Shown here: in pieces, positions 22,619-61,285 of the stretch
How the letters are laid out: the number at the start of each line of letters is the position of its first letter
How positions within the stretch are numbered: position 1 is the stretch's first letter
DNA from: Alphaproteobacteria bacterium
Lineage (GTDB): Bacteria > Pseudomonadota > Alphaproteobacteria > UBA2966
NCBI GenBank assembly: GCA_018650465.1
Contig: JABIFY010000092.1
Location: forward strand, 15,477-79,476
Direction: 5' to 3'
Length of the DNA: 64,000 bases
Notes under the pieces: model-generated
What the model saw: the letters and a program-made list of their open reading frames with translations, nothing else
Told to the model about the DNA's origin: nothing
Database searches by the model: none
Position numbers and translations under genes: made by a program

Positions 22619-23593
22619 TTAATGTGACATTATTTTGTGGCCCAGACCGGATGGTAAGGGGGCGTGTCTGTCGCGAATCCAGGACAAGATGTCCCGCCAG
22701 ACGATTTTCGACTGCAAATCACGTAATAACATGTGAAATCCGTCCGGATATATGGCTTCAGTCCTGTTGTTTTTCAACATTTTCAGCAATTCCTGATGCG
22801 CGTGGCCAGGAATAAGCTGATCGTCACCGGCACCCAGAACAAGAGCATACTGGTCGATCTGGTTAGCGCCTTCCAGGGCTGCCCCCATCAGGTGCACCAG
22901 CCCGTATAACGTGTCGACACGAGTTGATTTGATTATCAGCGGATCACGGCCCAAGGCACGTAACATTGGAATATTGTCAGAAGGCTTGATCCGCAAGCCT
23001 TCGCCGGTCAGGAGATTGGCTGGCACCGTATGCGCGCCAAGCCACAGAATAAGCCGGTAAAACGGGTTCATGGTCCCGGGGCCCCAGACAGCAGGACCAA
23101 CAAGGATAACGCCATCAACCGCTTTCAGCACAGCCTTCCGGTTTGGATCCCCAAGCGCCGTCAGAATAACTGCGGCCCCCATGCTGCTGCCCAGCAGATA
23201 AATTGGTAATTCCGGATGCCGATGATTTACGGCCCGGACTGCGTCGCCAAGGTCTGCAGCCATGGTCGGGGTGCTGGACCAGTATCCGGTATGCGGCGCT
23301 TGGCCAAAACCACGCTGATCATAAGCATATATCGTCAGCCCCTTGGCAGCCCACCAATCAGCGGGTTGTTCAAAGGCGCGGGAATAATCGTTAAATCCAT
23401 GCAAGGCAATAACGACCGCTTTTGGGGTGCCGTTTTTTGCCGGCCACTGGCGGAGCGGCAGGCGAACCTGATCTGCTGTGACAAGCACTTGGGTATCAAG
23501 GCTTGGCAAGGCGATCCGGTCGCCGCCTGGATGATATTGCGGGGCGCATGCAGCCAGGTTTGTCAGGATGATCAAACTGGAGAAGAGCCGCAT
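22619..23593 (-). CDS. Alpha/beta hydrolase (lysophospholipase-like), lipoprotein
   Basis: Lipobox signal peptide MRLFSSLIILTNLAAC. Nucleophile elbow GSSMGAAV. HGFNDYS oxyanion-region motif. Confidence 0.7.
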   Translation of the reverse strand: MRLFSSLIILTNLAACAPQYHPGGDRIALPSLDTQVLVTADQVRLPLRQWPAKNGTPKAVVIALHGFNDYSRAFEQPADWWAAKGLTIYAYDQRGFGQAPHTGYWSSTPTMAADLGDAVRAVNHRHPELPIYLLGSSMGAAVILTALGDPNRKAVLKAVDGVILVGPAVWGPGTMNPFYRLILWLGAHTVPANLLTGEGLRIKPSDNIPMLRALGRDPLIIKSTRVDTLYGLVHLMGAALEGANQIDQYALVLGAGDDQLIPGHAHQELLKMLKNNRTEAIYPDGFHMLLRDLQSKIVWRDILSWIRDRHAPLPSGLGHKIMSH

Positions 23594-26571: not shown

Positions 26572-27870
26572 TTAGTTTTCTGCTGCGGTCCGGTGATAGG
26601 TAAAAAAGCTTCGCAGCACTGAGAAACAGAACCAGGCAAAGCCAGCCGCACCGATAAATCCAACCAACCCGGCAACCCTCAATCCATCCGGTTGATCCAG
26701 CGCAATACTGGTTGCCCCCACAACAATGGCGAGGCCATGACAGATGGCATGCAGTTTCAGGGGGGAGCCTTGGGCCAATTCGGATAACCTTGGTGGTTTG
26801 TGATTTCGTTTCGACATATTCATTGCTGCCAAAAATGGCACAATCCGCTGCAACATGCCCTTGATGTAGGTCAAGAGCCAGCCAAACAGCAACACAAAGC
26901 CAAACAGGGCAGGTCCCTGATCACCGAGCAGGTCGAGCGCCAGGGCGAAGCCACAAATAATACTGAGCAACATCATGCCCCAGGCACCTTTAATCATGAA
27001 AAAGGAAAGTCCCAGCTTTTTACGCATGCCATTTTCCAGGCACCAGACCATGCCTTTAATATGAAGAGCTGCACCCGCCAGCCCGGCAACAGCGGCTAGG
27101 GCGATCAACTCAGGCAGGGCAAAATTCAATCCGGCAATCGTGCCCGCCAAGCCTGTCACCAACAGGGTGTAAGAAACCCAACCTTGCTTGCCTGGGGCAT
27201 TTTGTGACAACGCAAACATTGGCACCAGAATGTTGCCAAACCCCACTGCCAGAAACCCCATAAACCCGCAGGCCGCCAGCACCATGTGCTGGGCCGCGAC
27301 GCTCTCGTGATCCATCAGCCAGGCAAATTCAAAATCAAGTACCAGGGCAACCCCCAGTCCCAACAATCCAAATAATGCGGCCATGGAAATCCATGCATGG
27401 GCAACGGCCAGTTTCAAAGTTGTCGAACGCCACAGCAGGCTGGTGATGACATGCAGGAAGACCATCAAGGTCAAGGTTATTAATAACGCGCCACAAGACA
27501 TCAAAAACTGATTGCTTAGAAAAAAACCTGACAACAAACACGCAAGTCCCGGCAGAAACAGCCAGATCAACAGTTTGGCGGGCAACAGGCTTTTGTGGCC
27601 AAGGCCGGTGGCGACAGGCAGCAGCTGGATTGCAGCACCTATGGCCGTTGCCACCATAACGCCCAATGTCAACAAATGCAGGACAGCCAACACAGGTCCC
27701 GGCCCGCCGGCGTAGGATGGAATGTCATCGGCAGTATAGATCACGCCCAGCCAGACACCTGCGTGACAAACCACCGCGACCAGAAAAAACACGAAGGGCA
27801 GCATGGGCGGCAACAGCCTTTGTTGCGCCCCCATCAAAATCATGCCCGGTAGCTGTGGCGCCTTTTTCAT
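26572..27870 (-). CDS. Polytopic membrane protein of unknown function (His-rich TM helices; possibly NnrS-like)
   Basis: About 12 hydrophobic segments with conserved-looking intramembrane His (HLLTLGV, AHAWISMAAL, HMVLAACGF, HIKGMVW). The family was not identified. Confidence 0.45.
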   Translation of the reverse strand: MKKAPQLPGMILMGAQQRLLPPMLPFVFFLVAVVCHAGVWLGVIYTADDIPSYAGGPGPVLAVLHLLTLGVMVATAIGAAIQLLPVATGLGHKSLLPAKLLIWLFLPGLACLLSGFFLSNQFLMSCGALLITLTLMVFLHVITSLLWRSTTLKLAVAHAWISMAALFGLLGLGVALVLDFEFAWLMDHESVAAQHMVLAACGFMGFLAVGFGNILVPMFALSQNAPGKQGWVSYTLLVTGLAGTIAGLNFALPELIALAAVAGLAGAALHIKGMVWCLENGMRKKLGLSFFMIKGAWGMMLLSIICGFALALDLLGDQGPALFGFVLLFGWLLTYIKGMLQRIVPFLAAMNMSKRNHKPPRLSELAQGSPLKLHAICHGLAIVVGATSIALDQPDGLRVAGLVGFIGAAGFAWFCFSVLRSFFTYHRTAAEN

Positions 27871-29096: not shown

Positions 29097-29915
29097 CTAA
29101 GCCGTCAAGCCGCCATCCACGACTATTTCGGTGCCGGTTACATATCTGGCTTCGTCTGAGGCCAAAAAAACGGCTGCCCAACCAACATCCCAGGCTGTTC
29201 CCATCTTGCCCGTCGGGCACATGGCATCTCTCATAGCGATCGTCTCGTCAATGTCGCCGGCACCATATTGGTCAGCAATCCGGTCCATGACCAGGGGTGT
29301 ATTCATCAGACCCGGGACAATCGTGTTCGCACGGATACCTGCTGCGGCATATTGCCGGGCGACGGATTTGGAGAACTGGATCAAACCGGCTTTGGCAGTG
29401 GCGTAAGATACCATGTCGCGACCCAGATAGCTGGTGCCCGCAACTGATGAAACATTCAGAATGCTACCTTTACCCTGATTAACCATATGCGGCAGCGCAT
29501 ATTTACAGCCGAGAAAAGCTGTTTTCAGGTTCAAGTCCAGATTGCCTTGCCACTCAGAGACCGACATTTCGACTGGGCCACCGGGGATAGAGCCGCCAAC
29601 ATTGTTCATTAAAATGTCGATCTGGCCAAATTGATCGATGCAGGCCGCAACTACTTTTTCGATATCGCTTTCGTTGGTCGCATCAGCGGTCATTGTCTCG
29701 CAGGATCCGCCCTCCCGTTCGATGATTTTCCTGGTGTCAGCGACAGCATCGGCGCGCAAATCGACGGCAAAAACGCGGGCGCCTTCTCTGGCAAAAAGTG
29801 TGGCAGCGGTCTTGCCATTTCCCCAACCACCCAAATCACCGTCTGTGGCAGCCGTTGTGCCAACTGATCCAGCTCCAATGATCAATGCTGTTTTTCCGGC
29901 AAGACGTTCAGCCAT
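29097..29915 (-). CDS. SDR family oxidoreductase
   Basis: TALIIGAGSVG Rossmann motif with an unusual insertion. NNVGG and YxxxK are present. Confidence 0.75.
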   Translation of the reverse strand: MAERLAGKTALIIGAGSVGTTAATDGDLGGWGNGKTAATLFAREGARVFAVDLRADAVADTRKIIEREGGSCETMTADATNESDIEKVVAACIDQFGQIDILMNNVGGSIPGGPVEMSVSEWQGNLDLNLKTAFLGCKYALPHMVNQGKGSILNVSSVAGTSYLGRDMVSYATAKAGLIQFSKSVARQYAAAGIRANTIVPGLMNTPLVMDRIADQYGAGDIDETIAMRDAMCPTGKMGTAWDVGWAAVFLASDEARYVTGTEIVVDGGLTA

Positions 29916-30017
29916 TTACTTGTTTCCCCATTTTTGGTCACATTCTGTTAACTACGTTCTGATATGCACAAGTAGTGATATTTTAGAATAGCCACGAATC
30001 CAATATAGAATTCGACA

Positions 30018-31286
30018 TTGGATTCCACAATGAGCGTGCGACCAGAAGCCAGGGGTGCGGACAGGATGTCTGACGAAGACGAAGTCATTGACGACGAAGC
30101 TGTTGCGGCGGAGTGGGAAGCCTCGATGTTGGCGGAAGCCGGCGGGGACGAAGAGGAAGGCGTGGACGACGACGCTGTTGCCGCCGAATGGGAAGCCCAG
30201 ATGGCGGCCGAAGGCGGTGGCGATGAAGGTGGCGGTGATGACGATGCCATGGCCGAGGAGTGGGCCGCTATGGCCGACGGCGATGGTGATGGCGAAGATG
30301 AAGACGATGACATGGGGTCGACCCAGTCGACGCGTGTTCTTGACCAGGACGAAATCGACAGCCTGCTCGGCTTTGACAATGATGGTGACGGCGAGGAAGA
30401 AACTTCCGGCATCAAGGCGATCATCAACAGTGCGCTGGTTTCATACGAACGACTTCCCATGCTGGAGATCGTTTTTGACCGCCTGGTCCGGTTGATGTCG
30501 ACGTCCTTGCGTAACTTTACCTCAGATAATGTTGAAGTTTCGCTGGATAACATCACGTCAATTCGATTTGGCGATTACCTCAATTCCATTCCCTTGCCAG
30601 CTATTCTCAGTGTATTCCGAGCGGTTGAATGGGATAACTTCGGTTTGATCGTTGTTGATTCAGCCATGATCTATTCGATTGTGGATGTGCTGCTTGGCGG
30701 ACGTCGAGGCACTGCGGCTATGCGTGTTGAAGGTCGTCCATACACGACCATTGAACGAAACCTGGTTGAGCGCCTGGTGACCGTTGTGCTGGCCGATATG
30801 GGTGCGGCATTTGAGCCCCTTAGCCCTGTTAGCTTTAATTATGACCGCCTGGAAACCAATCCACGCTTTGCAACGGTTGCGCGACCTGCAAACGCGGCTA
30901 TTTTGATCAAGCTTCGGGTTGATATGGAAGACCGCGGCGGTCGTTTGGAAATAATGTTGCCATACGCCACGCTTGAGCCCATTCGTGAATTGCTGTTGCA
31001 GCAGTTCATGGGCGAGAAATTTGGCCGGGATACAATCTGGGAAAGCCACCTGGCAACAGAGCTCTGGTCGACCGAAATCTCTATTGAAGCTGTGCTTGAC
31101 GAACAAACAATGTCTTTGACAGATGTTATGAATTTTTCGGTTGGTGAAACCTTGATGTTGAACAGTGCGCCAGACGACCAGATTGAGTTGCGCTGCGGCG
31201 GCATTCCCCTGATGACCGGTAAGATGGGCCGGGTTGGGAATTCAATTTCAATTCGTGTGGACAATGGTATCGAATCGCGAAACTGA
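30018..31286 (+). CDS. fliM: Flagellar motor switch protein FliM with acidic tandem-repeat N-terminal extension
   Basis: Colinear with E. coli FliM (CheY-binding LDQDEIDSLL, RLPMLEIVFDRL, VDVLLGGRRG, IMLPYATLEPIRELL, C-terminal SpoA/FliN-like LRCGGIPLMTGKMG). It is preceded by about 100 aa of Asp/Glu-rich repeats (DDEAVAAEWEA x3). Confidence 0.85.
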   Translation: MDSTMSVRPEARGADRMSDEDEVIDDEAVAAEWEASMLAEAGGDEEEGVDDDAVAAEWEAQMAAEGGGDEGGGDDDAMAEEWAAMADGDGDGEDEDDDMGSTQSTRVLDQDEIDSLLGFDNDGDGEEETSGIKAIINSALVSYERLPMLEIVFDRLVRLMSTSLRNFTSDNVEVSLDNITSIRFGDYLNSIPLPAILSVFRAVEWDNFGLIVVDSAMIYSIVDVLLGGRRGTAAMRVEGRPYTTIERNLVERLVTVVLADMGAAFEPLSPVSFNYDRLETNPRFATVARPANAAILIKLRVDMEDRGGRLEIMLPYATLEPIRELLLQQFMGEKFGRDTIWESHLATELWSTEISIEAVLDEQTMSLTDVMNFSVGETLMLNSAPDDQIELRCGGIPLMTGKMGRVGNSISIRVDNGIESRN

Positions 31287-31297
31287 GTTTTTCACAT

Positions 31298-31651
31298 GTG
31301 ATCAAGCCACAAACCGCTCCTTCGCAGGGGCGGTTTTCTTTTGGAATCTGTCCAACTCCCCATTCTATCGAAAATGATATTAGGCTAATATTTGGTTCGG
31401 CTGGAGAAGCGGTCCTGTTGGCCAACGATACGCCTTATGGTCTGGCAGTCGCTGTATGGACGAAAAATTCTGCCCGGATGCATCGCCTGGGCCGCAAGAT
31501 TGAAGCCTGTATTCAATGGATGAATTGTTGGTTCTTGCGGGATCTCAGGACGCCGTTCGGCGGTTCAAAACCATCCGGTATTGGTCGCGAGGGCGGCGTG
31601 CATTCACTGGAATTCTATACCGATTTGCGTAATATCTGCGTCAAGCTTTAG
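31298..31651 (+). pseudogene. Remnant of an NAD-dependent aldehyde dehydrogenase (2-hydroxymuconic-semialdehyde-dehydrogenase-like), C-terminal about 95 aa only
   Basis: LLANDTPYGLAVAVWTKNSARMHRLGRKIEACIQWMNCWF...PFGGSKPSGIGREGG matches the ALDH C-terminus. The catalytic Cys and Rossmann domains are absent, and there is no upstream ALDH-coding frame. Confidence 0.7.
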
Positions 31652-31665
31652 GAGCAACTGACGAC

Positions 31666-32460
31666 ATGACAACAACGAACGAAAGCATCGAAAAAGCGGC
31701 AGCCGCCATTCGCAAAGCCTACGATACTGGCGAGGCTTGTGCTCCCGTGCGAGAGTTTATTGGTGAGACGGATCTGGATGCAGCTTATGCAGTTCAGGAA
31801 ATTAACACCAAACACTGGCTCGACACCGGCCGTCGACCTGTCGGGCGGAAAATTGGTCTGACGTCAAAAGTTGTGCAGACCCAATTGGGTGTGGATCAGC
31901 CTGACTACGGCATGCTCTATGCGGACATGGATGTCGGCGATAGTGAAGAAGTGGCTCTTGGTCGGGTCATTCAGCCACGGGTAGAAGCTGAAATATTTTT
32001 TGTTCTGGGCGATGACCTCGATGAAGAACAACTCACGACTGCCGATGTGATGAACGCCATTGACTACGCCGTTGCCGGAATTGAAATCGTTGGATCTCGC
32101 GTCGCTGAATGGAATATCCGCATTACCGATACGATTGCTGATAATGCGTCCTCCGGCCTGTTTGTGCTGGGCCAGCAACCTAAACTGATTTCCGAATTTG
32201 ATTTGCGCTTGTGTGGCATGGTCATGGAACGCAAGGGTGAGCCGGTTTCCGTGGGGGCAGGTGCCGCATGTCTCGGCAGCCCGATCAACGCAACTTTGTG
32301 GCTGGCCAGAATGATGGCGAAGGTCGGTCGTCCCTTGATGCGTGGCGATATTGTTCTGTCTGGTGCCCTGGGCCCTATGGTGCCTGTCTCACCTGGAGAT
32401 GTCGTTGAAGCACGGATAAGCGGGCTGGGTTCAGTTCGTGCCGTCTTTGCGCCTGAATAA
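31666..32460 (+). CDS. 2-oxopent-4-enoate (2-keto-4-pentenoate) hydratase family (XylJ/DmpE/MhpD-like)
   Basis: Member of the MhpD/4-OD fold family. Assigned as the hydratase from its position immediately upstream of the acetaldehyde dehydrogenase and aldolase genes. Confidence 0.6.
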   Translation: MTTTNESIEKAAAAIRKAYDTGEACAPVREFIGETDLDAAYAVQEINTKHWLDTGRRPVGRKIGLTSKVVQTQLGVDQPDYGMLYADMDVGDSEEVALGRVIQPRVEAEIFFVLGDDLDEEQLTTADVMNAIDYAVAGIEIVGSRVAEWNIRITDTIADNASSGLFVLGQQPKLISEFDLRLCGMVMERKGEPVSVGAGAACLGSPINATLWLARMMAKVGRPLMRGDIVLSGALGPMVPVSPGDVVEARISGLGSVRAVFAPE

Positions 32461-32478
32461 ACTTTAGGGAAACAAATT

Positions 32479-33417
32479 ATGAAAGCCAAAGTGGCGATTA
32501 TTGGTTCCGGAAATATTGGAACCGATTTGATGATCAAGATACAACGCATGTCGCAGGTGCTGGAAATGGCCGCAATGGTTGGTATTGATGCAGATTCGGA
32601 TGGATTGAAACGAGCCACTGAAACGGGCGTCGCTACAACCTATAAAGGCCTTGAGGGACTGACGAAACTGGATTGTTATGCCGATATCAAAGTCGTGTTC
32701 GATGCAACATCTGCTGGTGCTCACAAGGCACATTCCGAGCGACTGATCGCGGATGGCAAGCAAGTCATTGACTTGACCCCGGCAGCAGTCGGTCCGTTTG
32801 TGGTACCGGTGGTCAATATGGACGAGCATCAAAATGAGCCAAATATGAACATGGTGACCTGCGGCGGCCAGGCGACAATCCCGATTGTTGCTGCTGTGCG
32901 ACGGGTTGTGGATCGTGTGGTTTATGGTGAAATTGTCGCTTCTATTTCTTCAAAATCGGCAGGACCAGGTACCCGAGCAAATATTGATGAGTTTACAGTG
33001 ACCACAGCCAAAGGCATTGAAACCGTGGGCGGTGCCGAAAGGGGCAAGGCGATTATTGTCATGAACCCGGCCGAGCCCCCGATGATCATGCGAGACACAG
33101 TGTACACCTTCAGCCAGGGTGGCAACGAAGACGCGATCCGGGATTCCATCCAGACTATGGTTGCTGAAGTTCAAAAATATGTTCCAGGGTATCGTTTGAA
33201 ACAGGAAGTTCAGTTTGAACATTTTGGCGATAATCAAAAACTCAACATTCCTGATGTCGGTCAGACGGCTGGACTGAAAACAACGGTCTTTCTGGAGGTT
33301 GAAGGCGCTGCACACTATTTACCCGCCTATGCCGGAAATCTTGACATCATGACGTCATCTGCTTTGGCAACCGCTGAACGCTGGGTTGAAACCAAGCTTG
33401 ATGAAAAGGCTGCCTGA
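32479..33417 (+). CDS. Acetaldehyde dehydrogenase (acetylating)
   Basis: [22 protein letters not shown]-terminus and overall DmpF/MhpF pattern. Confidence 0.85.
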
Positions 33418-33419
33418 TC

Positions 33420-34484
33420 ATGAATGCAACTCAAACGCCTGATAAAATATATATCCAGGATGTAACCCTGCGGGATGGGATGCATGCTGTGCGTCACCAG
33501 TTTGATCTGGACACAGTGCAGTCAATTTCGCGGGCGCTGGATGAAGCGCATGTGGATGCCATCGAGATTTGCCATGGCGACGGTTTAACGGGCACCTCCT
33601 TCAACTATGGTTTCGGCTCGCATTCTGACAATGACTGGATTGCCGCCGTTGCCGATGTCGTTGAACAGGCGAAGGTTACTGTTTTGCTGATCCCCGGGAT
33701 CGGCACGATTGAAAACCTGAAATCGGCCTATGACGCCGGTGCCCGCAGTGTCCGTATTGCCACGCACTGCACCGAAGCTGATGTTTCGAAACAACATATT
33801 GAAGCGGCCCGCGAAATGGGTATGGATACGGTCGGATTTTTGATGATGGCCCATATGATTCCTGCACAGGAACTTTTAGCCCAGGCATTGTTGATGGAAT
33901 CTTATGGTGCTGAATGTGTTTATGTAACCGACAGCGCCGGAGCCTTGTTGCAGGATGAAGTGGCGGAGCGAGTGCGAATTTTTCGGGATGCATTGAAGCC
34001 TGAAACGGGTATTGGTATCCATTGCCACCACAATCTTTCGCTTGGTGTCGCCAGCTCTGTGTCAGCTGTCCAGAATGGCGCGACAAGAGTTGATGCTTCG
34101 CTGGCCGGGAACGGGGCTGGTGCCGGCAATACACCGCTTGAAGTTCTGATTGCGGTATTCAATCGCATGGGTATCGAAAGTGGGTGTGATCTCTACAAAT
34201 TGATGGATGCGGCGGATGATCTTGTTCGTCCATTACAAGATCGTCCTGTGCGGGTTGACCGTGAAAGTTTGTCGCTGGGGTATGCTGGAGTCTATTCCAG
34301 CTTCTTGCGTCATGCCGAAAATGCTTCTGAAACCTATGGCATTGATACCCGTGAAATGCTTGTAGAGCTGGGGCGTCGTCGCATGGTCGGTGGCCAGGAA
34401 GACATGATTGTCGATGTGGCACTGGACCTGGTGAAGAGCAGGCAAGAAGCGGGCGCTGAAAATTCTGAAGAGGCAACAACATGA
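33420..34484 (+). CDS. 4-hydroxy-2-oxovalerate aldolase
   Basis: [12 protein letters not shown]...EICHGDGL DmpG/MhpE signature. Start is 3 nt after the previous stop. Confidence 0.85.
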
Positions 34485-35251
34485 GTAATCTTGGAAACCT
34501 GGCGGAAATTGTTGATGAAGCTGCGCGAACGGCAACTGCGGTACCGCAATTGACTATTGATACACCGGATTTGACGCCAGAAGACGGTTATGCCGTGCAG
34601 GCCCTCGCCATGGCGAGGCGCCTTTCACGTGGTGAAAAACGTGTTGGCGTGAAGATGGGCCTGACCAGTCGGGCCAAAATGATTCAGGTGAATGTGGAAG
34701 AGGTCATCTGGGGTCGCTTAACAGATGGCATGCGGGTCGAAGAAGGCGGTTTCACATCCATGTCGAAATATGTGCACCCCCGGGTGGAGCCTGAAATTGC
34801 TTTTTTGATGGGTGCGCCTCTGTCAGGGGATGTCAGTGCCGTTGAAGCTATGAACGCTGTGGAAGCTGTTGCGCCTGCCATGGAAATCATCGATAGCCGC
34901 TACAAGGATTTCAAATTTACCTGGGCAGATGTTGTTGCAGACAATTGTTCATCTTCCGGGTTTGTGATTGGGAATTGGTGTGCACCGGACAGCGATATCG
35001 CAAATGCGGGCATGGTCATGGAAATTGATGGGCAAGCCCGGCAAATCGGGTCCAGTGCTGCGATCCTGGGCAATCCGGTGCGGTCGCTGGTCGCGGCGGC
35101 CCGCATGGTGTCCCAATGGGGCGAACGTCTGGAAGCCGGGTACATTGTGATGGCAGGTGGGGCGACGGCCGCCGAACCTCTGGCTGCGGGCATGAGCATC
35201 CGGAATACAGTTCAGGGACTTGGCAGTGTGTCGTTTCAGGTAGAGGCCTGA
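34481..35251 (+). CDS. 4-oxalocrotonate decarboxylase family (XylI/DmpH-like)
   Basis: Second MhpD-fold paralogue, placed after the aldolase as in dmp/xyl operons. 4-nt overlap with the upstream gene. Confidence 0.55.
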
Positions 35252-35352
35252 GCAACAAGTATCACGCAGGCGCGATATCTGCGACAATATACCACGTCGT
35301 TGCCGGGGTCGTTTTCATTTTCAATAGATCGGTCTGATCAAAAGAGGCCGAC

Positions 35353-36360
35353 ATGACCCATACTGAACCGATGCGTGACATAGCCCATCTGGGCCATATC
35401 GAATTGCTCTCACCCAAGCCTGACGAAAGTTTCCGCTATTTCACAGAGCTGCTGGGCATGGAATGTGTGCACCGCGAGGGACAGTCAGTCTATTTGCGGG
35501 GGTACGGAGACAATGCTTCAACAACCTTGAAGTTATCCGAATCTGACAAGCCAGGTGTCGGCCATGTGGGTTGGCGTGCCATCAGCCCCCAGGCATTGGA
35601 ACGCAGGGCGGCGGAGATTGAGAAAACCGGTCTTGGCCTTGGTTGGAGCAATGGGGACTTTGGCCATGGTCGCGCTTATCAGTTTTTTGATCCGGATGGA
35701 CACAAGCAGGAAATTTACTACGAGGAAGACCGCTACATTGCACCGGATGACAAGCGATCAACCCTGAAAAATCTACCCATGAAATACCCCGGTCGCGGCG
35801 TCGGTGTGCGGCGGACAGACCATCTGGCCTTGCTTTGTAAAGACGTCGGACCCAATCGTGAATTCGCCCAGGAAAATCTGGGTTTGCAACTGCGTGAACA
35901 AGTGCTTTTCGACGAGGGTAAATTTGAAGTCGGCTCGTGGATGAGTTCAACTGCCGTTCATCATGAAATGGCTTATGTTGCCGATGTCAAAGGCTTGAGC
36001 GGTCGATTGCATCATGTTTCGTTCTGGGTCGATAATCGAGAAGATGTGTTGCGGGCGGCCGATATCCTTATGGAAAATGGAATCGAAATCGAGGCAGGGC
36101 CATCGCGTCATAATAATTCCCAGGCCTTCTATCTCTATTCCTTTGAACCCGGTGGCAACCGCATCGAAATCTACTCAAGCGGGTTTTTGGTTTTTGCACC
36201 AGACTGGCAACCTGTCATCTGGAACGAACAAGAACGCGGTACAGGCGTTTATTGGGGCGCAGCCTTGCCGGACAGTTTTTTGAATTATGGAACACCAGAC
36301 CCGGAAACACATGGATTGCCGACCCCAGCCAGCGATATACCCGGCGTTGATCCGCTGTAA
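35353..36360 (+). CDS. Catechol 2,3-dioxygenase (type I extradiol dioxygenase, VOC superfamily)
   Basis: Colinear with XylE, including GRLHHVSFWVDNREDVLRAADIL...GPSRHNNSQAFYLYSFEPGGNRIEIY. Confidence 0.8.
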   Translation: MTHTEPMRDIAHLGHIELLSPKPDESFRYFTELLGMECVHREGQSVYLRGYGDNASTTLKLSESDKPGVGHVGWRAISPQALERRAAEIEKTGLGLGWSNGDFGHGRAYQFFDPDGHKQEIYYEEDRYIAPDDKRSTLKNLPMKYPGRGVGVRRTDHLALLCKDVGPNREFAQENLGLQLREQVLFDEGKFEVGSWMSSTAVHHEMAYVADVKGLSGRLHHVSFWVDNREDVLRAADILMENGIEIEAGPSRHNNSQAFYLYSFEPGGNRIEIYSSGFLVFAPDWQPVIWNEQERGTGVYWGAALPDSFLNYGTPDPETHGLPTPASDIPGVDPL

Positions 36361-36641
36361 ATACTGTCTGGACTATTCTGGAAGGTCAGCCAGGGCATCT
36401 CTGATTTCTTGTAGATTGCAGGGCTTGCGAATAATCGGAATGATGCCCCCAAATCTTCCTGGGTTTGTTCCATATTTTCATTACTATTCAAGGCCTTGAT
36501 GCCGCGCTGCGTTTTCAAAAGAGCCGCACAGACCAAACCAAATGATAATCTATTTTATCGACAAAGCATTGTTGCTCGCAGGATGAGTGCCGGATACTCT
36601 TGAATAGCTAATTCCCCAATAATTTCCTTCCGAAATACAAA

Positions 36642-37055
36642 ATGAAAATCCATATACATCAAATCTCCGTTGAGTGGGGCGATTGTGACCCTGCCGGCAT
36701 TGTATTTTATCCGAACTATTACCGCTGGATGGACGAAGCAACCTTTCATTTGTTTGACAGTGCAGGTTACGGTTGGACGGAAATTCGAGAAAAATTTGGC
36801 CCCCCCGGATTACCTTTGGTAGCCACACATGCGGAATATCGCATTCCAGGCTTTTTTGGTGACAAAATGAGTATCGAAGTCGGCGTTTCCGAATGGGGAA
36901 CCAAATCACTAACTGTGTCCCACCGCTTTATGAAAGACGGCAAGCTGGCAGTTGAAGGTTGGGAAAAGCGCATCTGGAGCGAGGGTGATCCGGGGGCCGG
37001 CAAAAAAATTGTAACGGCTCCCATCCCCGAAGAAGTGAAGGTCGCGCTGAGTTAA
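36642..37055 (+). CDS. 4HBT-fold acyl-CoA thioesterase (YbgC-like)
   Basis: Catalytic-region motif WGDCDPAGIVFYPNY (DxxGxV). Confidence 0.7.
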   Translation: MKIHIHQISVEWGDCDPAGIVFYPNYYRWMDEATFHLFDSAGYGWTEIREKFGPPGLPLVATHAEYRIPGFFGDKMSIEVGVSEWGTKSLTVSHRFMKDGKLAVEGWEKRIWSEGDPGAGKKIVTAPIPEEVKVALS

Positions 37056-37084
37056 ACCGGATCATTGAATCAAGGACAGGAATT

Positions 37085-37918
37085 ATGACCAGTGGAGTAG
37101 TCGCAAGCGCAATCGTGCCCCATACACCTCGCATGGGCGTTGAGGAATCCGCACCGGATTTTGTCCGTCCACTTATCCAGGGACAACGCGATCTTGGTGA
37201 AGAACTACGCGCGCTCAAACCAGATGTAATTGTCTTGCAGTCCAGCCACTGGGTCAGCACATTTAATTGGTACGTGACTGTTAACAAAATCCATGAAGGT
37301 GTTTGCATCGCCGACGAAGCACCAGACCTTATTCCCGGCTCCCCTTACAAATACGATGGTGATCCAGAATTCGGACAGGCCGTTGTCGATGCGCTCAAAG
37401 GGGCAGGCCTGGCTGTTGGTTTGATGGATTCACCCCATTTCAAATGGGATTATGCCTCATATGTGCCGCTGCATTATCTCGACCCGGAAGCAACGATCCC
37501 GGTCGTCTTGCTGCCATCCGTCATATGTTCTGATCTGAATGAAAACATCAGGGTTGGTGGACTTGTACATGAGGCCGCAGTCAAGGAGGGCAAAAAAGTT
37601 GTTTACCTGGGCAGTTGCGCCCTCGCTCACAAAGTTGTCCGTGGGCCCCATTTGTGGCCATCACAGGAGCATATGGATACAGATAAAAAGCTGATTTCCA
37701 TGTTCTGTGACGGCGAAATAGATGCGTTGATTGATTGGCTGCCTGCTTATGCTCACGATGTTGTCACCGAAATGGGGGGGCGACCCCTTGCCGGGATGTT
37801 GGGGGCAACTGCTGCCATGGCCGGGGATACTGGTCGTGTCCGTGGCAAACAATGGGGTCCCTACGGACAAAGTTCCGGATCTGGCAATGCCAGCATTTGT
37901 GTTTTGCCAGCAGACTAA
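37085..37918 (+). CDS. Class III extradiol ring-cleavage dioxygenase, LigB family (AmnB/HpaD-like)
   Basis: AIVPHTPR N-terminus, PDVIVLQSSHW, WDYASYVPLHYL and LGSCALAHK match LigB-family landmarks. Confidence 0.65.
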   Translation: MTSGVVASAIVPHTPRMGVEESAPDFVRPLIQGQRDLGEELRALKPDVIVLQSSHWVSTFNWYVTVNKIHEGVCIADEAPDLIPGSPYKYDGDPEFGQAVVDALKGAGLAVGLMDSPHFKWDYASYVPLHYLDPEATIPVVLLPSVICSDLNENIRVGGLVHEAAVKEGKKVVYLGSCALAHKVVRGPHLWPSQEHMDTDKKLISMFCDGEIDALIDWLPAYAHDVVTEMGGRPLAGMLGATAAMAGDTGRVRGKQWGPYGQSSGSGNASICVLPAD

Positions 37919-37948
37919 TTCGTAAATAATACAGAACGGAATTTAACC

Positions 37949-40084
37949 ATGGGTGCTGAACGGTCTTTTGCCAAGGAAGTACAACAACTTCGCGCGGGCG
38001 AGGGGGAGGTATTTTTTGGCGAAGGCATCCTCGCTGTTACCAAAGGTTTGCTGCAGTCAGGTGTGGCCTATGTTGGCGGCTATCAAGGAGCACCTGTTTC
38101 ACATTTGATTGATGTGCTGGTAGATGCCGAAGACTTGATGACTGAACTGGGTATGCATGTAGAAACCTGCGCCAGTGAAGCGGCGGCAGCCGCCTTGCTG
38201 GGCGCATCAATTAATTATCCTTTACGCGGTGCCGTGACCTGGAAGTCCATCGTAGGTACCAACGTTGCGGCTGATGGCTTGTCCAATCTGTGCTCACCGG
38301 GGGTCATGGGCGGGGCATTGATTGTTGTTGGCGAGGATTACGGTGAAGGCGCCAGCATCATCCAGGAGCGTACCCTCGCCATGGCCATGAAGTCGACGAT
38401 CTGGCTTTTTGATCCCAGACCGGATTTGCAGAATATCGTCGACATGGTGGAGCAATCATTCGAGCTATCCGAAGCCTCCAATACGCCTGTGATGATGCAG
38501 CTACGTATCAGGTCCTGCCATGTCCAGGGAGAATTCATAGCCAAAAATAATCGCGCACCGAAAGTTGGCACCAAAAACCGTTTCACCGATCCGGCGGTGT
38601 TTGACTATGACCGTCTGGCGCATCCACCCGTGACCTTCAGTCATGAAAAGCTGAAAGTCTCTGCCCGCTTGCCGGCCGCACAGCGCTACATCGTTGAACA
38701 TGGCCTGAATGAACTGATCGAAGGTGAGCAAAAATCGGTCGGCATCATCGTCCAGGGAGGGATTTACAATATCCTCATGCGACGCTTGCAGGTCATGGGG
38801 TTAGCCGATGCTTTCGGAAACAGCAAGATACCCGTGTTGGTGTTGAATGTGACCCATCCGCTGGTGCCGGATCAGATAACGGATTTCTGTGCCGGTAAAA
38901 ATGCTGTTCTGATGGTCGAGGAAGGCAATCCCGAATTTATGGAACATCAGGTTAGCTCCCTGCTGCGCAAGGCTGACCTTTCAACCAAACTACACGGTAA
39001 GGACATCCTGCCGGCGGCTGGCGAATATACAGCTGATGTTTTGCAGCAGGGGCTGGTTTCATTTTTCGAGCTGGCCATGCCGACGGGCATTCACAAGTCC
39101 CATATACAGGACCTGGTCGCTCGTAGCGATGATGCGCGCATGGGCGGTAAGGTAGCCCTTGGTCAGCCATCACCGCCCAGACCTCCCCAGTTCTGCACGG
39201 GTTGCCCGGAACGCCCGGTTTTTTCGGCGATCAAGATCATCGAGCAGGAAACAGGGAAGGTGCATATCGCGGCTGATATCGGCTGTCACGCCTTTGCGAC
39301 CTTTGAACCATTTTCCATGGGGAATTCCATTCTTGGTTACGGCATGTCGCTGGCCAGTGCCGCCGCAGTTGCCCCTTTTCAGGAACGGCGCTCTATATCC
39401 ATTATGGGGGATGGTGGCTTTTGGCATAACGGCCTGACCAGCGGTGTCGTCAGCACCATGTTGAACGCTGGTGATTCTATTCTGATCATCATGCAGAACG
39501 GCTATACGTCTGCGACCGGCCAGCAATTTATCCCCAACAGTGCCGCCGGCCGTCACAAGGAGCCGCCGGGTATGGACATCGCCAAGACATTGAAAGGGTT
39601 GGGTGTTCCGTGGATGAAGACGATCCGGACATATTCTGTATCTGTAATGGTCGATACTTTGCGGGAAGCTTTGACGACGGACGTACCGGGCCTGAAGGTC
39701 ATTATCGCCGATGGTGAATGTCAGCTTGCGCGGCAACGACGACTGCGGGGTGAAAATGCCGGAAAACTGGAACGGGGCGAACGCGTTGTCACGCCGCGAT
39801 TTGGCATCGATGATGAAATTTGCTCAGGCGATCATTCCTGCATTCGACTTTCAGGTTGCCCCAGTCTTGGTATCAAGGACAATCCAAATCCGCTCAAATC
39901 TGATCCGGTCGCGACGATTGAGCCCACATGCGTTGGCTGTGGAATGTGCGGTGAAGTCTCCCACGCAGCAACGCTTTGCCCTTCCTTTTACCAAATCGAA
40001 AAAGTGACCAATCCAGGAGTTTTCGAGAATATGCTTGCAACCGTTCGACGCGGCGCAATCGGATTTTTGGGAGGCGGAGCGTGA
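37949..40084 (+). CDS. iorA: Indolepyruvate/2-oxoacid:ferredoxin oxidoreductase alpha subunit (ThDP-binding)
   Basis: ThDP motif GDGGFWHNG. Ferredoxin-type Cys clusters CTGCPERP and CVGCGMCGEV. IorA-type domain order. Confidence 0.75.
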   Translation: MGAERSFAKEVQQLRAGEGEVFFGEGILAVTKGLLQSGVAYVGGYQGAPVSHLIDVLVDAEDLMTELGMHVETCASEAAAAALLGASINYPLRGAVTWKSIVGTNVAADGLSNLCSPGVMGGALIVVGEDYGEGASIIQERTLAMAMKSTIWLFDPRPDLQNIVDMVEQSFELSEASNTPVMMQLRIRSCHVQGEFIAKNNRAPKVGTKNRFTDPAVFDYDRLAHPPVTFSHEKLKVSARLPAAQRYIVEHGLNELIEGEQKSVGIIVQGGIYNILMRRLQVMGLADAFGNSKIPVLVLNVTHPLVPDQITDFCAGKNAVLMVEEGNPEFMEHQVSSLLRKADLSTKLHGKDILPAAGEYTADVLQQGLVSFFELAMPTGIHKSHIQDLVARSDDARMGGKVALGQPSPPRPPQFCTGCPERPVFSAIKIIEQETGKVHIAADIGCHAFATFEPFSMGNSILGYGMSLASAAAVAPFQERRSISIMGDGGFWHNGLTSGVVSTMLNAGDSILIIMQNGYTSATGQQFIPNSAAGRHKEPPGMDIAKTLKGLGVPWMKTIRTYSVSVMVDTLREALTTDVPGLKVIIADGECQLARQRRLRGENAGKLERGERVVTPRFGIDDEICSGDHSCIRLSGCPSLGIKDNPNPLKSDPVATIEPTCVGCGMCGEVSHAATLCPSFYQIEKVTNPGVFENMLATVRRGAIGFLGGGA

Positions 40085-41565
40085 TGGAACTAAGTACTGT
40101 TCGCCCGATTACCCTTTTGATTGCAGCCATGGGCGGCGAAGGTGGTGGTGTGTTAACCAGCTGGATCGTCAACGCCGCGAGAAGCTGCGGTTTGCCGGTT
40201 CAAGCAACCTCCATCCCCGGAGTGGCCCAGCGCACAGGTGCAACCACATATTATATAGAAATTTGGCCAGAGGTCTTGTCTGTGGGGGCCACAAAACCGG
40301 TGCTGGCATTGGCCCCGGCCATTGGTGAAATAGATATTCTGGCGGCAACAGAATATGTTGAAACGGGTCGCATGATCGAAGCAGGCTATGTCACGCCTGA
40401 TCGCACGACCTTGATTGCGTCAAATCATCGTGTTTTCACTACGCATGAAAAACTGGCGATGGGGGATGGTCGTGCAGATGTCGCGCCGATAAAAAAAGCC
40501 ATTAAAGAGCGCGCGAAAAGAGCCGTTGTCGTCGATATGCGCGAAGCCTCAAGCAAAAGTGGCGCGGTGATCAATGCCGTTATGCTGGGGGCCATATGCG
40601 GTGCCGGTGTCTTGCCAATTACTAGAAATGTTTTTGAAGATGGCATTCAGGCTGAAGGCAAGGCTGTTGAAGCAAACCTGCGGGGCTTTAAAGCCGGACT
40701 TGACGCAGCCACAACCCGCGCAAATTCCGATGAAGTTACTGAGGCTTCGGTCGCCGTCCATTCTGCGCTGTCGCATGCGATCAGCAATGATTTTCCTCTG
40801 GCGGCGCATCAAACCCTGATACATGCGACTACTCGACTGATTGATTATCAGGATATCGCTTATGCGACAGCCTATCTCGAAAAACTGAAGCCTTTCGCGC
40901 AAGGTGATCAGGAACTTTTAGTCAGTGTCGGCCGAAATCTCGCCGTCCGGATGGCCTATGAGGATGTTTACCGTGTTGCCCAGGTGAAAGCCCACCCAGA
41001 CCGCCTGATGCGAATCAGGAAGGAAGCTCGCGCTCAAACCGGTGAGCCAATCAAGGTCAGGGAATTCTTCAAACCGCGACTATCTGAAATCAGTGATGCC
41101 TTGCCCGCAGGGCTGGGGCGTTGGCTTCAATCCCTGGCAGAGCGCAATCCTGGACTTGCGCAAAAATCGTGGCCCATGTTGATCGAAACAACCTCTGTTT
41201 CGGGATATCTGCGAATTCGGGTTTTGTCAGGATTGAGACGCATCCGTCGGTCGACCCTTCGTTTCAAAACAGAAGAACAAGCGATCACGAACTGGTTGGC
41301 GTACGTTGGCAAAGCCATGGAGACAAGTCACAAGGCTGCCATGCAAGTCTCGGAATGTTCCAGTTTGATCAAAGGGTATGGCGATACCCACAAGCGCGGC
41401 GTTAGAAGCTATAGTGCCATCATGAATCAACTCGTTGTGCCTGCCGTTACGGGCGACAAGTTTACTGACCAATTGGCCGCAGATATTTATGCCGCCAGAA
41501 CGGCAGCTTTGGCTGATCCGGAAGGCAAAAACCTGATGGCAGTTCTGGAAGGTATGGCGGCATGA
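40084..41565 (+). CDS. iorB: Indolepyruvate/2-oxoacid:ferredoxin oxidoreductase beta subunit
   Basis: ITLLIAAMGGEGGGVL...ATSIPGVAQRTGATTYYIE matches the IorB / PFOR-gamma fold. Its ATG overlaps the iorA stop (TGATG). Confidence 0.75.
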   Translation: MELSTVRPITLLIAAMGGEGGGVLTSWIVNAARSCGLPVQATSIPGVAQRTGATTYYIEIWPEVLSVGATKPVLALAPAIGEIDILAATEYVETGRMIEAGYVTPDRTTLIASNHRVFTTHEKLAMGDGRADVAPIKKAIKERAKRAVVVDMREASSKSGAVINAVMLGAICGAGVLPITRNVFEDGIQAEGKAVEANLRGFKAGLDAATTRANSDEVTEASVAVHSALSHAISNDFPLAAHQTLIHATTRLIDYQDIAYATAYLEKLKPFAQGDQELLVSVGRNLAVRMAYEDVYRVAQVKAHPDRLMRIRKEARAQTGEPIKVREFFKPRLSEISDALPAGLGRWLQSLAERNPGLAQKSWPMLIETTSVSGYLRIRVLSGLRRIRRSTLRFKTEEQAITNWLAYVGKAMETSHKAAMQVSECSSLIKGYGDTHKRGVRSYSAIMNQLVVPAVTGDKFTDQLAADIYAARTAALADPEGKNLMAVLEGMAA

Positions 41566-42968
41566 CGGGCACGACAACGAACCTCGACACCGGTGAAATG
41601 ATGGCTCTTTATGCCAGCGGCGACTTGTCTCCAGTGACAGTTGCTGAGGATCTGTTTGTGAGTATCGAAAAACAGGAACCGGTTCTGAATGCTTTCCAGG
41701 TGCTGGACCAGGAAGCCGCCCTGTCACAGGCACGTGCCAGTGAAGCACGATGGCACCGCGGTAAACCGATGGGCGATCTTGATGGTGTGCCGGTCAGTAT
41801 CAAGGAACTGATCCTGACAAAAGGCTGGCCAACCCGGCAAGGGTCGCTGACGACGGACGCTGATCAGGCCTGGGATGTTGATGCGCCTGCCGTTGCCCGG
41901 TTACGTGAAGCAGGGGCTGTATTGTTTGGAAAAACTACTTCTCCTGAATTTGGCTGGAAGGGAATAACAGACAGTCCTTTAAGTGGCGTCACCCGAAACC
42001 CGTGGAACCCGGATTATTCCCCTGGAGGTTCCAGTGGCGGGGCAGGAGCTGCCGTCGCTGCCGGTCTCGGGCCCCTGGCCCTGGGGACAGATGGCGGCGG
42101 TTCGATACGAATACCTGCCAGTTATTGCGGTTTGTTCGGCATTAAACCGACATTCGGCCGGGTGCCTTCCTGGCCTCAGGACAGTGCTTATTCGACATTG
42201 GTCAGCAGTGGCCCTCTGTCGCGTAACGTTGCTGACGCGGCCCGCATGTTGAATGTCATTACACGACCGGATTATCGCGACTGGTATGCCTTGCCGCCGG
42301 AAAAAGTGGACTACCTCGATCAACTGTCACGTCGCGTAAAGGGTTTACGTATTGGATACAGTCCATCTCTGGGCGGGGCCAAAGTGACGCCAGAAGTTGC
42401 CGGGATTGTTGCAAAAGCCATTGATACCTTCGCTGATCTGGGTGCTCACGTTGAGATCGTCGACGACATCATTGAGCCCTTGCGCCCCAGGTTTGAAGAC
42501 TATTGGGTTGCCGGATTTGCAGCTATTTATCGCAATGTACCGGTTGGCATGCGGGATCACCTGGACCCTGGTTTCAGGAAACTTGCCGAACGAGGTTTAT
42601 CAGTTGATCTGGAAGGGTATTACAAGGGACTTGCGGCGAGGGTAACGCTGGCAGAAGAATTCAGCCGTTTTTACGAAAATCATGATTTGTTAATGACCCC
42701 GACCATGCCATCCACTGCGCCCAAAGCCGATGTTATCTACCATTCCGAAACATTCGATCGCTGGAATGATGCGGTTCCATATACCGTCCCGTTCAACCTG
42801 ACAGGGTTGCCCGCAGCTTCCGTTCCGGCTGGACTTGATTCAAGGCAACTCCCTGTCGGCCTGCAAATTGTTGGCCCCAGGTTTGCCGAGTTTCGCATTT
42901 TGGCGGCAGCCGCCGCTTTTGAGCAGGTCAGACCATTTCCGACACTGCTGAAACCAGGCAACGACTGA
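41562..42968 (+). CDS. Amidase-signature family amidase
   Basis: GGSSGGAGAAVAAG signature and Ser-cisSer-Lys triad context. 4-nt overlap with iorB. Confidence 0.8.
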   Translation: MTGTTTNLDTGEMMALYASGDLSPVTVAEDLFVSIEKQEPVLNAFQVLDQEAALSQARASEARWHRGKPMGDLDGVPVSIKELILTKGWPTRQGSLTTDADQAWDVDAPAVARLREAGAVLFGKTTSPEFGWKGITDSPLSGVTRNPWNPDYSPGGSSGGAGAAVAAGLGPLALGTDGGGSIRIPASYCGLFGIKPTFGRVPSWPQDSAYSTLVSSGPLSRNVADAARMLNVITRPDYRDWYALPPEKVDYLDQLSRRVKGLRIGYSPSLGGAKVTPEVAGIVAKAIDTFADLGAHVEIVDDIIEPLRPRFEDYWVAGFAAIYRNVPVGMRDHLDPGFRKLAERGLSVDLEGYYKGLAARVTLAEEFSRFYENHDLLMTPTMPSTAPKADVIYHSETFDRWNDAVPYTVPFNLTGLPAASVPAGLDSRQLPVGLQIVGPRFAEFRILAAAAAFEQVRPFPTLLKPGND

Positions 42969-46006: not shown

Positions 46007-46139
46007 TCTTGATCTGTTGAAAAACCCAGATATTCCATACATTTATTGTTGATGTCGGTTTATTTGCTGGTCCCGTTGTCAGCAGGTGGTTTTTCGTGGG
46101 AAAACACAGGTTCTGAATATAGAAGAGGATGCAGGTAGT

Positions 46140-47567: not shown

Positions 47568-47599
47568 GAATTGGTTAAAAACGGACTTGTAATTTGCGA

Positions 47600-47618
47600 T
47601 AATAAATACTATTTATTA
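47600..47618. promoter_or_regulatory. Perfect AT-rich palindrome TAATAAATA-c-TATTTATTA (operator-like), with an imperfect second copy at 47630-47646
   Basis: Seen directly. Lies in the 160-bp gap upstream of the MDR oxidoreductase gene. Confidence 0.4.
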
Positions 47619-47728
47619 ATTGAAGTTTCTAATAAATAGTATTTTTGGAAATATGTAACCACAGTATTCCGGCCTTTTCTGACACAGGCAAACGCCTTGA
47701 AAACCGGTGCAAAACAAGGACCGTTGAT

Positions 47729-48742: not shown

Positions 48743-48774
48743 AGCGAATATCAAGCCTGATTCCATAAGGAAAA

Positions 48775-48841
48775 GCGGCGGCATTTTGTAGCAATTGAGA
48801 CCCTTTTTGGGATCATTTTGTCGCAAATGCTGCCGTTTTTT
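48775..48841. terminator. Candidate bidirectional terminator (long compound hairpin + T6)
   Basis: GCGGCGGCATTTTG ... CAAATGCTGCCG stem with an inner ACCC-TTTTT-GGG hairpin. Flanked by aaaa and tttttt. Lies between the convergent MDR and galE genes. Confidence 0.35.
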
Positions 48842-48847
48842 ATGGAT

Positions 48848-49867: not shown

Positions 49868-49952
49868 TTGCCGTGATCATAGGGCGGTAATTGAGACCTG
49901 ACGAGGCGGCAAAAGACAAATATCTTGACTCCCAAATACCGTTTGCATACTA

Positions 49953-53581: not shown

Positions 53582-53583
53582 TG

Positions 53584-57328: not shown

Positions 57329-57342
57329 GCTGGACCCCGAAT

Positions 57343-58819: not shown

Positions 58820-58867
58820 TCGGGCATTCTGGCCCAAATCAAAATAGCATGACAGGGAAGTAATATA

Positions 58868-59974: not shown

Positions 59975-60014
59975 GAACGATTATTTTTGGCGACTACTCT
60001 GGGGGGAAAGAACA

Positions 60015-61172: not shown

Positions 61173-61285
61173 CTATCTGTTATTAAACAATAAATCAAAT
61201 ATCTGGCGACAAGGCTTGAACCGGACCCGTAATCAGGTTTGAATCGTTCAAAATCCCTTTCCTTCGAAACCCACAGGACCCCGTC

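Follow-up and report, generated by a model that had tools for sequence, protein, structure and literature searches.

Introduction

Meta-cleavage operons of the dmp/xyl type are known from Pseudomonas sp. CF600 (dmpBCDEFGHI) and from the TOL plasmid (xylEGFJQKIH), and it is well known and commonplace for mosaic clusters of aromatic catabolism to contain partial genes and gene relics. An operon with the same enzyme families and the same core order (dehydrogenase, hydratase, acetaldehyde dehydrogenase, aldolase and 4-oxalocrotonate decarboxylase (4-OD)) was analysed in a stretch of 64,000 nt, referred to here as the window, from an uncultured marine alphaproteobacterium (GenBank assembly GCA_018650465.1, contig JABIFY010000092.1, positions 15,477–79,476, forward strand), and in the corresponding loci of sister populations. 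In the window, the place of the first gene, which in the sisters encodes 2-hydroxymuconic semialdehyde dehydrogenase (HMSD), is taken by an open reading frame (ORF) of 117 codons at 31298–31651. This ORF is very probably what a deletion of about 1.35 kb has left of the gene, a pseudogene relic and as such a case of ordinary gene decay. An earlier note on the same DNA had described the region as a mosaic and incomplete meta-cleavage cluster headed by a dehydrogenase remnant, and had taken it for a recombination scar at which fliM might have been inserted.

The truncated dehydrogenase gene

The ORF begins with GTG, 12 nt past the fliM stop codon, and the GTG is not preceded by a Shine–Dalgarno sequence. 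The match to the Pfam family Aldedh was limited to residues 34–112, corresponding to profile positions 381–460 of 461 (E = 3e-21). TIGR03216 (2-hydroxymuconic semialdehyde dehydrogenase) was the top NCBIfam family (E = 3e-39, with HpaE second at 6e-27) and aligned residues 32–117 to profile positions 396–481 of 481; the score of 134.9 bits lies far below the full-protein cut-off of 693 that a full-length HMSD would reach. When the intact enzyme of a sister locus was used as tblastn query, its residues 407–492 alone were found at the locus, at 31391–31648, gap-free and with 85% identity. Residues 1–406 had no match in the 64 kb beyond a 35%-identical paralogue at 46143–47546. The clade signature RMHRLGRKIEA-IQWMNCW is common to the relic and the intact orthologues. 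On these matches the surviving segment is assigned as orthologous to HMSD and not to other aldehyde dehydrogenase (ALDH) families.

Codons 1–31 of the ORF are intergenic, non-dehydrogenase sequence and span the fliM terminator hairpin. About 95 surviving codons had been counted in the earlier note; the truncation stands, and the count is 86 by tblastn. In enzymes of the ALDH superfamily, profile positions 1–395, or roughly the first 400 residues, hold the NAD-binding domain together with the catalytic Cys and Glu. The relic is without these positions, and with them the domain and residues by which an HMSD is recognized, and it therefore cannot be an enzyme. As had been claimed, the dehydrogenase step is absent from the locus, where 86 C-terminal codons alone remain. 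Depending on the gene caller, a product of 117 or 125 aa is predicted from the relic.

Sister loci and the first deletion

The sister locus L012, on the metagenome-assembled genome (MAG) 'Alphaproteobacteria bacterium SI054_bin61', was obtained by scanning species-representative genomes with the hydratase protein. Its hydratase is 92% identical to that of the window and its FliM core 97%. The gene order in L012 is Sel1, SDR (minus strand), fliM, an intact 492-aa HMSD, hydratase, acetaldehyde dehydrogenase, aldolase, 4-OD-like protein, dioxygenase, thioesterase, LigB and IOR. The same order was found in a second sister population (L066/L067), whose dehydrogenase is 97% identical to that of L012. 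The 492-aa protein of L012 scored 874 bits on TIGR03216, against the cut-off of 693.

A spacer of 240 nt separates fliM from the intact HMSD gene in L012 and L066/L067. From the fliM stop codon to HMSD codon 407 there are 1,458 nt in L012 and 104 nt in the window, a net loss of 1,354 nt. One internal deletion in the window lineage has thus removed HMSD codons 1–406 together with the greater part of the spacer. The comparison with syntenic loci that had been proposed therefore bears out the reading of this spot as a rearrangement scar, with an intact HMSD gene at the same site in the sisters.

The window ORF next to the relic is a genuine fliM by Pfam and by TIGR01397 (315 bits, cut-off 220, aligned residues 106–418), so that the relic does lie directly after fliM as had been stated. 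The core of the gene is under strong constraint, with a ratio of non-synonymous to synonymous substitution rates (dN/dS) of 0.018 against L012. An insertion of fliM, or of a block that includes it, at the cost of the 5′ part of the dehydrogenase gene has in its favour how out of place fliM is here. No second flagellar gene was found within about 84 kb around it, which is the sequence covered in this study (the window and 10 kb on each side). The relative L069, whose FliM is 80% identical, has fliM inside a flgF/fliL-fliM/DUF6468/CheZ cluster, and the neighbours of the window gene were found at 0 of 80 other fliM loci. The three sister loci nevertheless carry the Sel1-SDR-fliM block before an intact HMSD gene with its own 240-nt spacer. 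The relocation of fliM is older than the truncation, and because fliM was already present, the event was an internal deletion and not an insertion; the insertion proposal is refuted and is given next to no credence.

Orphan fliM genes of this clade were also seen at 1920–3131 of L012 and at 6561–7763 of L066. The canonical FliM starts near residue 106 of the window protein, and the 100 or so residues before it form a putative acidic repeat extension; the true start codon is uncertain. The acidic stretch (30018–30330) precedes the canonical N-terminus (the ...VLDQDEIDSLLG motif) and includes three imperfect repeats of the form D-x-A-V-A-A-E-W-E-A-x-M. The FliM of L069 likewise has an N-terminal extension of about 110 residues.

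The hairpin after fliM (31311–31336) has a folding energy of −17.6 kcal/mol (z = −2.5). In the sister spacers a perfect 16-bp palindrome, ATTTTATCGATAAAAT, lies upstream of the HMSD gene and is followed directly by TTGACA. The window has ATTCTATCG-AAAATGAT at 31362–31378, just before the relic, which may be a remnant, degenerate copy of the sister operator. The similarity of the 54-nt junction zone (31337–31390) to the sister spacers was non-significant, with 170 and 293 shuffles, out of 2000 each, scoring as well. The native promoter was probably lost with the spacer.

Direct repeats or microhomology as a cause of the deletion were looked for in the sister sequence, and short matches at chance level alone were found. 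A 17-nt repeat pair (L012, 3316 and 4632) has suitable spacing but does not match the observed junction and was rejected. No insertion sequence (IS) or repeat attributable to the deletion was found.

The junction in independent assemblies

Contigs with the hydratase protein turned up in 52 blocks of the assembly collection. Of these contigs 23 were read, and in 9 of the 9 places shown for them the relic ORF stood between fliM and the hydratase gene. Over the 6,800 nt across the junction (29901–36700), loci L001, L002, L003 and L007 agreed with the window at every base (100% identity), and L006 at all but one. The contigs carrying the junction came from JGI, from ENA (with k141-style and NODE-style names) and from the NCBI MAG GCA_018699195.1, and were 10 to 143 kb long. 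The GC content had no discontinuity over 29–37 kb.

An artefact of assembly had been named in the earlier note as what would undo its reading. An error of assembly or of binning, for instance a chimera, has in its favour that the data are of metagenome type, the organism being known from MAGs alone. The same junction was reached by different assemblers from independent JGI, ENA and NCBI sources, and the relic has lineage-specific substitutions, which would not be expected from a chimera of intact sequences. The truncation junction is real and not an assembly error, and we hold an artefact to be extremely improbable.

The window population is nearly clonal, contigs from several samples and assemblers being 100% identical over 6.8 kb. 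The sister species have about 78–82% nucleotide identity to the window, and one of them co-occurs with it in at least one shared sample (JGI 3300072015). An intact allele was not found in the species of the window; the nearest full-length proteins were those of the sisters (100% and 97%), followed by proteins at 82%. A relic-specific 29-mer had no exact match in the JGI metagenome collection, which seems not to contain the known JGI samples of the relic. In a homologue search with the 117-aa product as query, no protein longer than 201 aa was listed, although the L012 enzyme is a full-length relative of higher identity. It seems that what short queries bring up is mostly fragments, and many of these are given the full enzyme name in the JGI annotation.

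The second deletion and the regulators

In the sisters the dioxygenase and thioesterase genes are 3,963 nt apart, with a hybrid histidine kinase (974 aa) and a GntR/FCD regulator (241 aa) encoded between them on the minus strand; in the window the distance is 281 nt. A second deletion in the window lineage, with a net loss of 3,682 nt, has removed the kinase and the GntR regulator. A short relic of the 3′ end of the kinase gene was found in the remaining sequence by tblastn (59% identity, with E = 0.087 when the whole window was the target; 76% over 42 nt at the nucleotide level, E = 2.5e-4), and the thioesterase promoter region is kept within the 281 nt. No GntR homologue was found in the window.

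The palindrome ATTTTATCGATAAAAT occurs with 0 mismatches exactly twice in L012, at 3271–3286 before the HMSD operon and at 13449–13464 in the divergent GntR/thioesterase promoter region. The GntR/FCD regulator probably has this palindrome as its operator, and the distribution of the palindrome suggests that one regulator controlled both operons in the ancestor. The copies are degenerate in the window, whose GntR gene is deleted.

The earlier note had suggested that the pathway was rewired to the downstream LigB/IOR module. In its favour, the second deletion has put the two operons within 281 nt of each other. The same palindrome precedes both sister operons, however, and the association of the meta-cleavage genes with LigB/IOR therefore looks ancestral rather than new. 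The rewiring suggestion is correct in part at most. The thioesterase-LigB-IOR module is also present in L012, as far as the contig reaches.

Missing pathway steps

A search for HMS (2-hydroxymuconic semialdehyde) hydrolase and 4-oxalocrotonate tautomerase (4-OT) homologues had been proposed with the claim that neither ORF is present, and both absences were confirmed for the window. For 4-OT, three tautomerases from related loci in which the gene follows 4-OD were used as tblastn queries; the best E value in the window was 0.46, and there was no match in L001–L012. For the hydrolase the best E value in the window was 1.9, and the abhydrolase encoded at 22619–23593 had no NCBIfam match. The HMSD, hydrolase and 4-OT families were not found in the 10-kb flank on either side. 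With HMSD truncated and no hydrolase found in the sequence covered, the locus encodes no semialdehyde route.

The sisters with an intact HMSD are also without 4-OT and hydrolase and also have a 3′ dioxygenase. Compared in this way, these properties are read as ancestral features of the clade and not as damage; they were there before the truncation and have no connection with it, and the term mosaic does not describe a mark of that event.

The full-length ALDH gene at 46086–47567 was considered as a replacement for the lost dehydrogenase and was rejected. It is of the succinate-semialdehyde dehydrogenase (SSADH) type, with 603 bits on the SSADH model against 349 on the HMSD model, and is 35% identical to the sister HMSD. 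As HMSD is gone and the downstream genes are kept, semialdehyde oxidation would be supplied from elsewhere in the genome, or it would be unneeded and the genes would be fed further down the pathway.

The two deletions might also be an adaptive streamlining, in which the lower pathway and the dioxygenase were joined to the thioesterase-LigB-IOR-amidase operon to give a route that does without an ALDH-family semialdehyde dehydrogenase, hydrolase or tautomerase. This is regarded as quite improbable. If it were true, the aldehyde could be handled by, for example, the molybdenum enzyme (49953–53581) or the aldehyde:ferredoxin oxidoreductase (61286–62995), and the 4-OD-like protein would be kept for an oxalocrotonate-independent role.

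Substitutions in the relic and in the downstream genes

The amino-acid differences between the relic and L012 were polarised with 11 outgroup sequences in a relative-rate test. Of 13 differences, 11 were derived in the window, 1 was derived in L012 and 1 was ambiguous (binomial p = 0.006). Two of the window-derived changes (D to G and G to C) are at sites that are invariant in 12 of 12 other sequences. In the four neighbouring genes the derived changes were distributed between window and sister as 10 : 7 (hydratase), 11 : 13 (acetaldehyde dehydrogenase), 2 : 8 (aldolase) and 9 : 8 (4-OD-like, dN/dS 0.018), in total 32 : 36. Derived changes per codon were 0.128 in the relic against 0.027 in the four neighbours (Fisher p = 7e-5). 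From these counts we infer that the relic is decaying by drift. The pairwise dN/dS of the relic against L012 was 0.04 with dS saturated, and mostly reflects history inside the intact gene; as a test of relic function it was rejected as uninformative, and the relative-rate test was used instead.

If the relic has drifted neutrally since the deletion, its excess of replacements implies a divergence of 0.027–0.052 substitutions per site. When neutral change was simulated at this divergence, only 1.4% to 0.1% of runs kept all five downstream ORFs (the four neighbours and the dioxygenase) open, as against 11% at the lowest value tried, 0.015 per site. All five genes are open and full length, in agreement with the earlier description of the downstream genes as intact, and the AGGAG ribosome-binding site of the hydratase gene overlaps the stop codon of the relic. 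Together with the balanced rates of the four tested genes, the simulations argue that purifying selection on the five genes continued after the loss of the dehydrogenase. Since the four tested genes have evolved at the rate of the sister and the five ORFs are open, they are probably still expressed and used.

These results also bear on whether the whole meta-cleavage operon has been silenced and is being lost, its intact genes having simply not yet decayed. Much about the locus fits such a course: the net loss of 1,354 nt covers most of the regulatory spacer, the terminator hairpin lies directly upstream, no sigma-70-like site was found on the + strand at 31287–31665, both GntR and the kinase are deleted, and HMSD, hydrolase and 4-OT are missing from the sequence covered. 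Against it, derived replacements per codon are about five times as frequent in the relic as in the four neighbours, which have no excess over the sister, and neutral simulations at the divergence of the relic almost never kept the five ORFs open; at 0.015 per site the runs weaken the silencing of the operon without overturning it. Silencing is judged unlikely, though it keeps some weight.

The relic might instead have been retained for a purpose, either as a new promoter or leader of the hydratase operon or as a small functional protein. It is gap-free and in frame over 258 nt with no stop codon, gene callers predict a product from it, and the operon needs some source of transcription. Its replacements are accelerated, some of them at family-invariant sites, and no promoter-like site was found inside it; the GTG start is without a Shine–Dalgarno sequence, and the first 31 codons cross the terminator hairpin. 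The open frame is itself unremarkable, as fewer than 1 indel would be expected (estimated from the divergence implied for the relic and a typical indel-to-substitution ratio, not computed). Retention of the relic for a function is considered improbable.

Gene neighbourhood and other features of the window

Coordinates are collected in table 1. The genes from fliM to the amidase form a co-directional run of ORFs on the + strand (30018 to 42968). The putative catechol 2,3-dioxygenase gene lies at the 3′ end of the meta-cleavage operon, as had been noted and as the gene order confirms, and it has the same position in L012, L066 and L067. The nearest solved relatives of its product are the catechol 2,3-dioxygenases 3lm4 and 7q2a.

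Table 1. Positions of the relics, deletion scars, genes and signals in the window.
Feature	Position	Strand	Evidence or remark
fliM, orphan	30018–31286	+	Pfam FliM (PF02154) and FliMN_C (PF01052), TIGR01397
Intrinsic-terminator-like hairpin and T tract after fliM	31311–31345	+	11-bp stem, then TTTTCTTTT
Zone holding the first deletion junction	31346–31390		Local alignment to sister spacer
Relic of HMSD/2-aminomuconate-6-semialdehyde dehydrogenase (AMSDH), last 86 codons and stop	31391–31651	+	TIGR03216, tblastn against sister enzyme
2-Oxopent-4-enoate (2-keto-4-pentenoate) hydratase, intact	31666–32460	+	NF008461, 338.8 bits (cut-off 350); dmpE model, 257 bits
Acetylating acetaldehyde dehydrogenase (DmpF type), intact	32479–33417	+	TIGR03215, 454 bits (cut-off 282)
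4-Hydroxy-2-oxovalerate aldolase (DmpG type), intact	33420–34484	+	TIGR03217, 565 bits (cut-off 286)
4-OD-like, hydratase paralogue, intact	34481–35251	+	TIGR03218 (best model), 236 bits (cut-off 350)
Type I extradiol (catechol 2,3-) dioxygenase, putative, intact, 3′ end of operon	35353–36360	+	TIGR03211, 315.7 bits (cut-off 320.2)
Second deletion scar, 281 nt	36361–36641		Replaces 3,963 nt of sisters
Relic of hybrid histidine kinase, last ~22 codons	36382–36447	−	tblastn, L012 kinase residues 951–972
Degenerate palindrome copy ATTTTATCGACAAAGC	36552–36567	+	Thioesterase promoter; 3 mismatches to ATTTTATCGATAAAAT; 84% over 25 nt, positional homology
Thioesterase (downstream operon)	36642–37055	+	Pfam, NCBIfam
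LigB-type dioxygenase (downstream operon)	37085–37918	+	Pfam, NCBIfam
IOR-like alpha (downstream operon)	37949–40084	+	Pfam, NCBIfam
IOR-like beta (downstream operon)	40084–41565	+	Pfam, NCBIfam
Amidase (downstream operon)	41562–42968	+	Pfam, NCBIfam
Succinate-semialdehyde-type ALDH	46086–47567		
Three-domain molybdenum hydroxylase	49953–53581		
Tungsten-type aldehyde:ferredoxin oxidoreductase	61286–62995		

The LigB-type dioxygenase, which is weakly like homoprotocatechuate 2,3-dioxygenase and 2-aminophenol 1,6-dioxygenase, is found alongside dehydrogenase operons of this type in several members of the Alphaproteobacteria. A LigB-type gene beside the dehydrogenase operon was seen in the window (operon 36642–42968), in L012, in L016 (13891–14715) and in L068 (636–1478). 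The ancestral enzyme could have acted on either a hydroxy- or an amino-semialdehyde. Because the LigB type occurs together with an AMSDH-like dehydrogenase and an amidase and without 4-OT, the substrate served by the ancestral regulon might have been not catechol but a compound like aminophenol or hydroxyanthranilate. The literature was searched for amidase-type 2-aminomuconate deaminases, and nothing usable was found.

The region 46086–62995 holds a dense set of aldehyde and aromatic genes. In addition to the three genes listed in table 1, a Zn-dependent alcohol dehydrogenase, two AA_synth genes, a Rieske/VanA oxygenase, a MarR gene and an amidohydrolase are present there. At 26572–27870 on the minus strand, between DUF2249 and hemerythrin genes, there is a conserved 432-aa ORF without a Pfam match, which is found in the species of the window and in the sisters. 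An Rfam scan of the whole window gave no matches.

Discussion

The history that best accounts for the locus starts from an ancestor in which an orphan fliM with its terminator would have been followed by a regulatory spacer of about 240 nt and by the genes for HMSD, hydratase, acetaldehyde dehydrogenase, aldolase, 4-OD-like protein and catechol 2,3-dioxygenase. Further 3′ would have been the GntR regulator and the hybrid kinase on the opposite strand, and then thioesterase, LigB, IOR and amidase, with the same 16-bp palindrome, the probable GntR operator, before both forward operons. In the window lineage one deletion (1,354 nt net) took most of the spacer with HMSD codons 1–406, and another (3,682 nt net) the kinase and the GntR regulator, by which the two operons were brought together. 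Since then the relic would have drifted while the downstream genes stayed expressed and used. Candidates for the current source of transcription are read-through of the fliM terminator and a promoter newly formed at the relic or inside it.

Several points weigh against this history or limit it. Four of the 11 derived changes of the relic are in its first five codons and could be junction sequence; without them the relic stands at 7 : 1 (binomial p = 0.07), and the per-codon excess stays (Fisher p = 0.01). The frame of the relic is open and has no indels, which fits a fairly recent event and leaves room for a residual role, and since dS between window and sister is saturated, the age of the deletion is a rough estimate. 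The left breakpoint cannot be fixed and is bracketed between the terminator and about 31390 (31346–31390). The deletion of the promoter is deduced from the net length, because the similarity of the junction to the spacer was non-significant. The sequence covered is about 84 kb of the genome and says nothing on complementation in trans.

The feature is an ordinary deletion-derived pseudogene in a known operon type and opens no new question of wide interest. It does call for caution: because gene callers predict a protein from the relic, and short JGI fragments of the family already bear the name of the full enzyme, a non-existent dehydrogenase step could be counted when the pathways of this oxygen-minimum-zone alphaproteobacterium are reconstructed. 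The locus also offers a clean, datable case of a catabolic regulon undergoing reduction, in which two deletions took one enzyme and both regulators and the other genes remained constrained.

Comparison with known systems

With the relics of other catabolic clusters, the window shares a gene truncated by deletion inside an otherwise functional operon. It differs in that no IS or repeat is tied to the deletion, whereas the HMSD gene of L065 is split by an IS. C-terminal HMSD relics as a recurrent outcome were considered and rejected: the two cases that were checked on long contigs are different, L065 being IS-split and L064 a frameshift-ridden long-read assembly. L064 is a metagenomic locus with the full canonical meta-cleavage set.

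The intact protein of the sister scored 663 bits against the structures of AMSDH (PDB 4I1W and 4NPI). The window relic differs from AMSDH and HMSD in being without profile positions 1–395, and is a pseudogene and not an enzyme of the family.

Among the enzymes shared with the dmp/xyl-type operons, the aldolase and the acetaldehyde dehydrogenase of the window passed their NCBIfam equivalog cut-offs in the pathway test; the hydratase scored just under its own, and the 4-OD-like protein and the dioxygenase below or just below theirs. The window differs from these operons in that its dioxygenase gene is at the 3′ end and its product is 25–28% identical to the upstream dioxygenases of L019, L034 and L055. 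Window and sisters alike differ in having no HMS hydrolase and no 4-OT, the latter of which directly follows 4-OD in the relatives L013, L016, L017 and L018. The dehydrogenase, which in the sisters keeps its place at the head of the core order, has in the window been cut to 86 codons.

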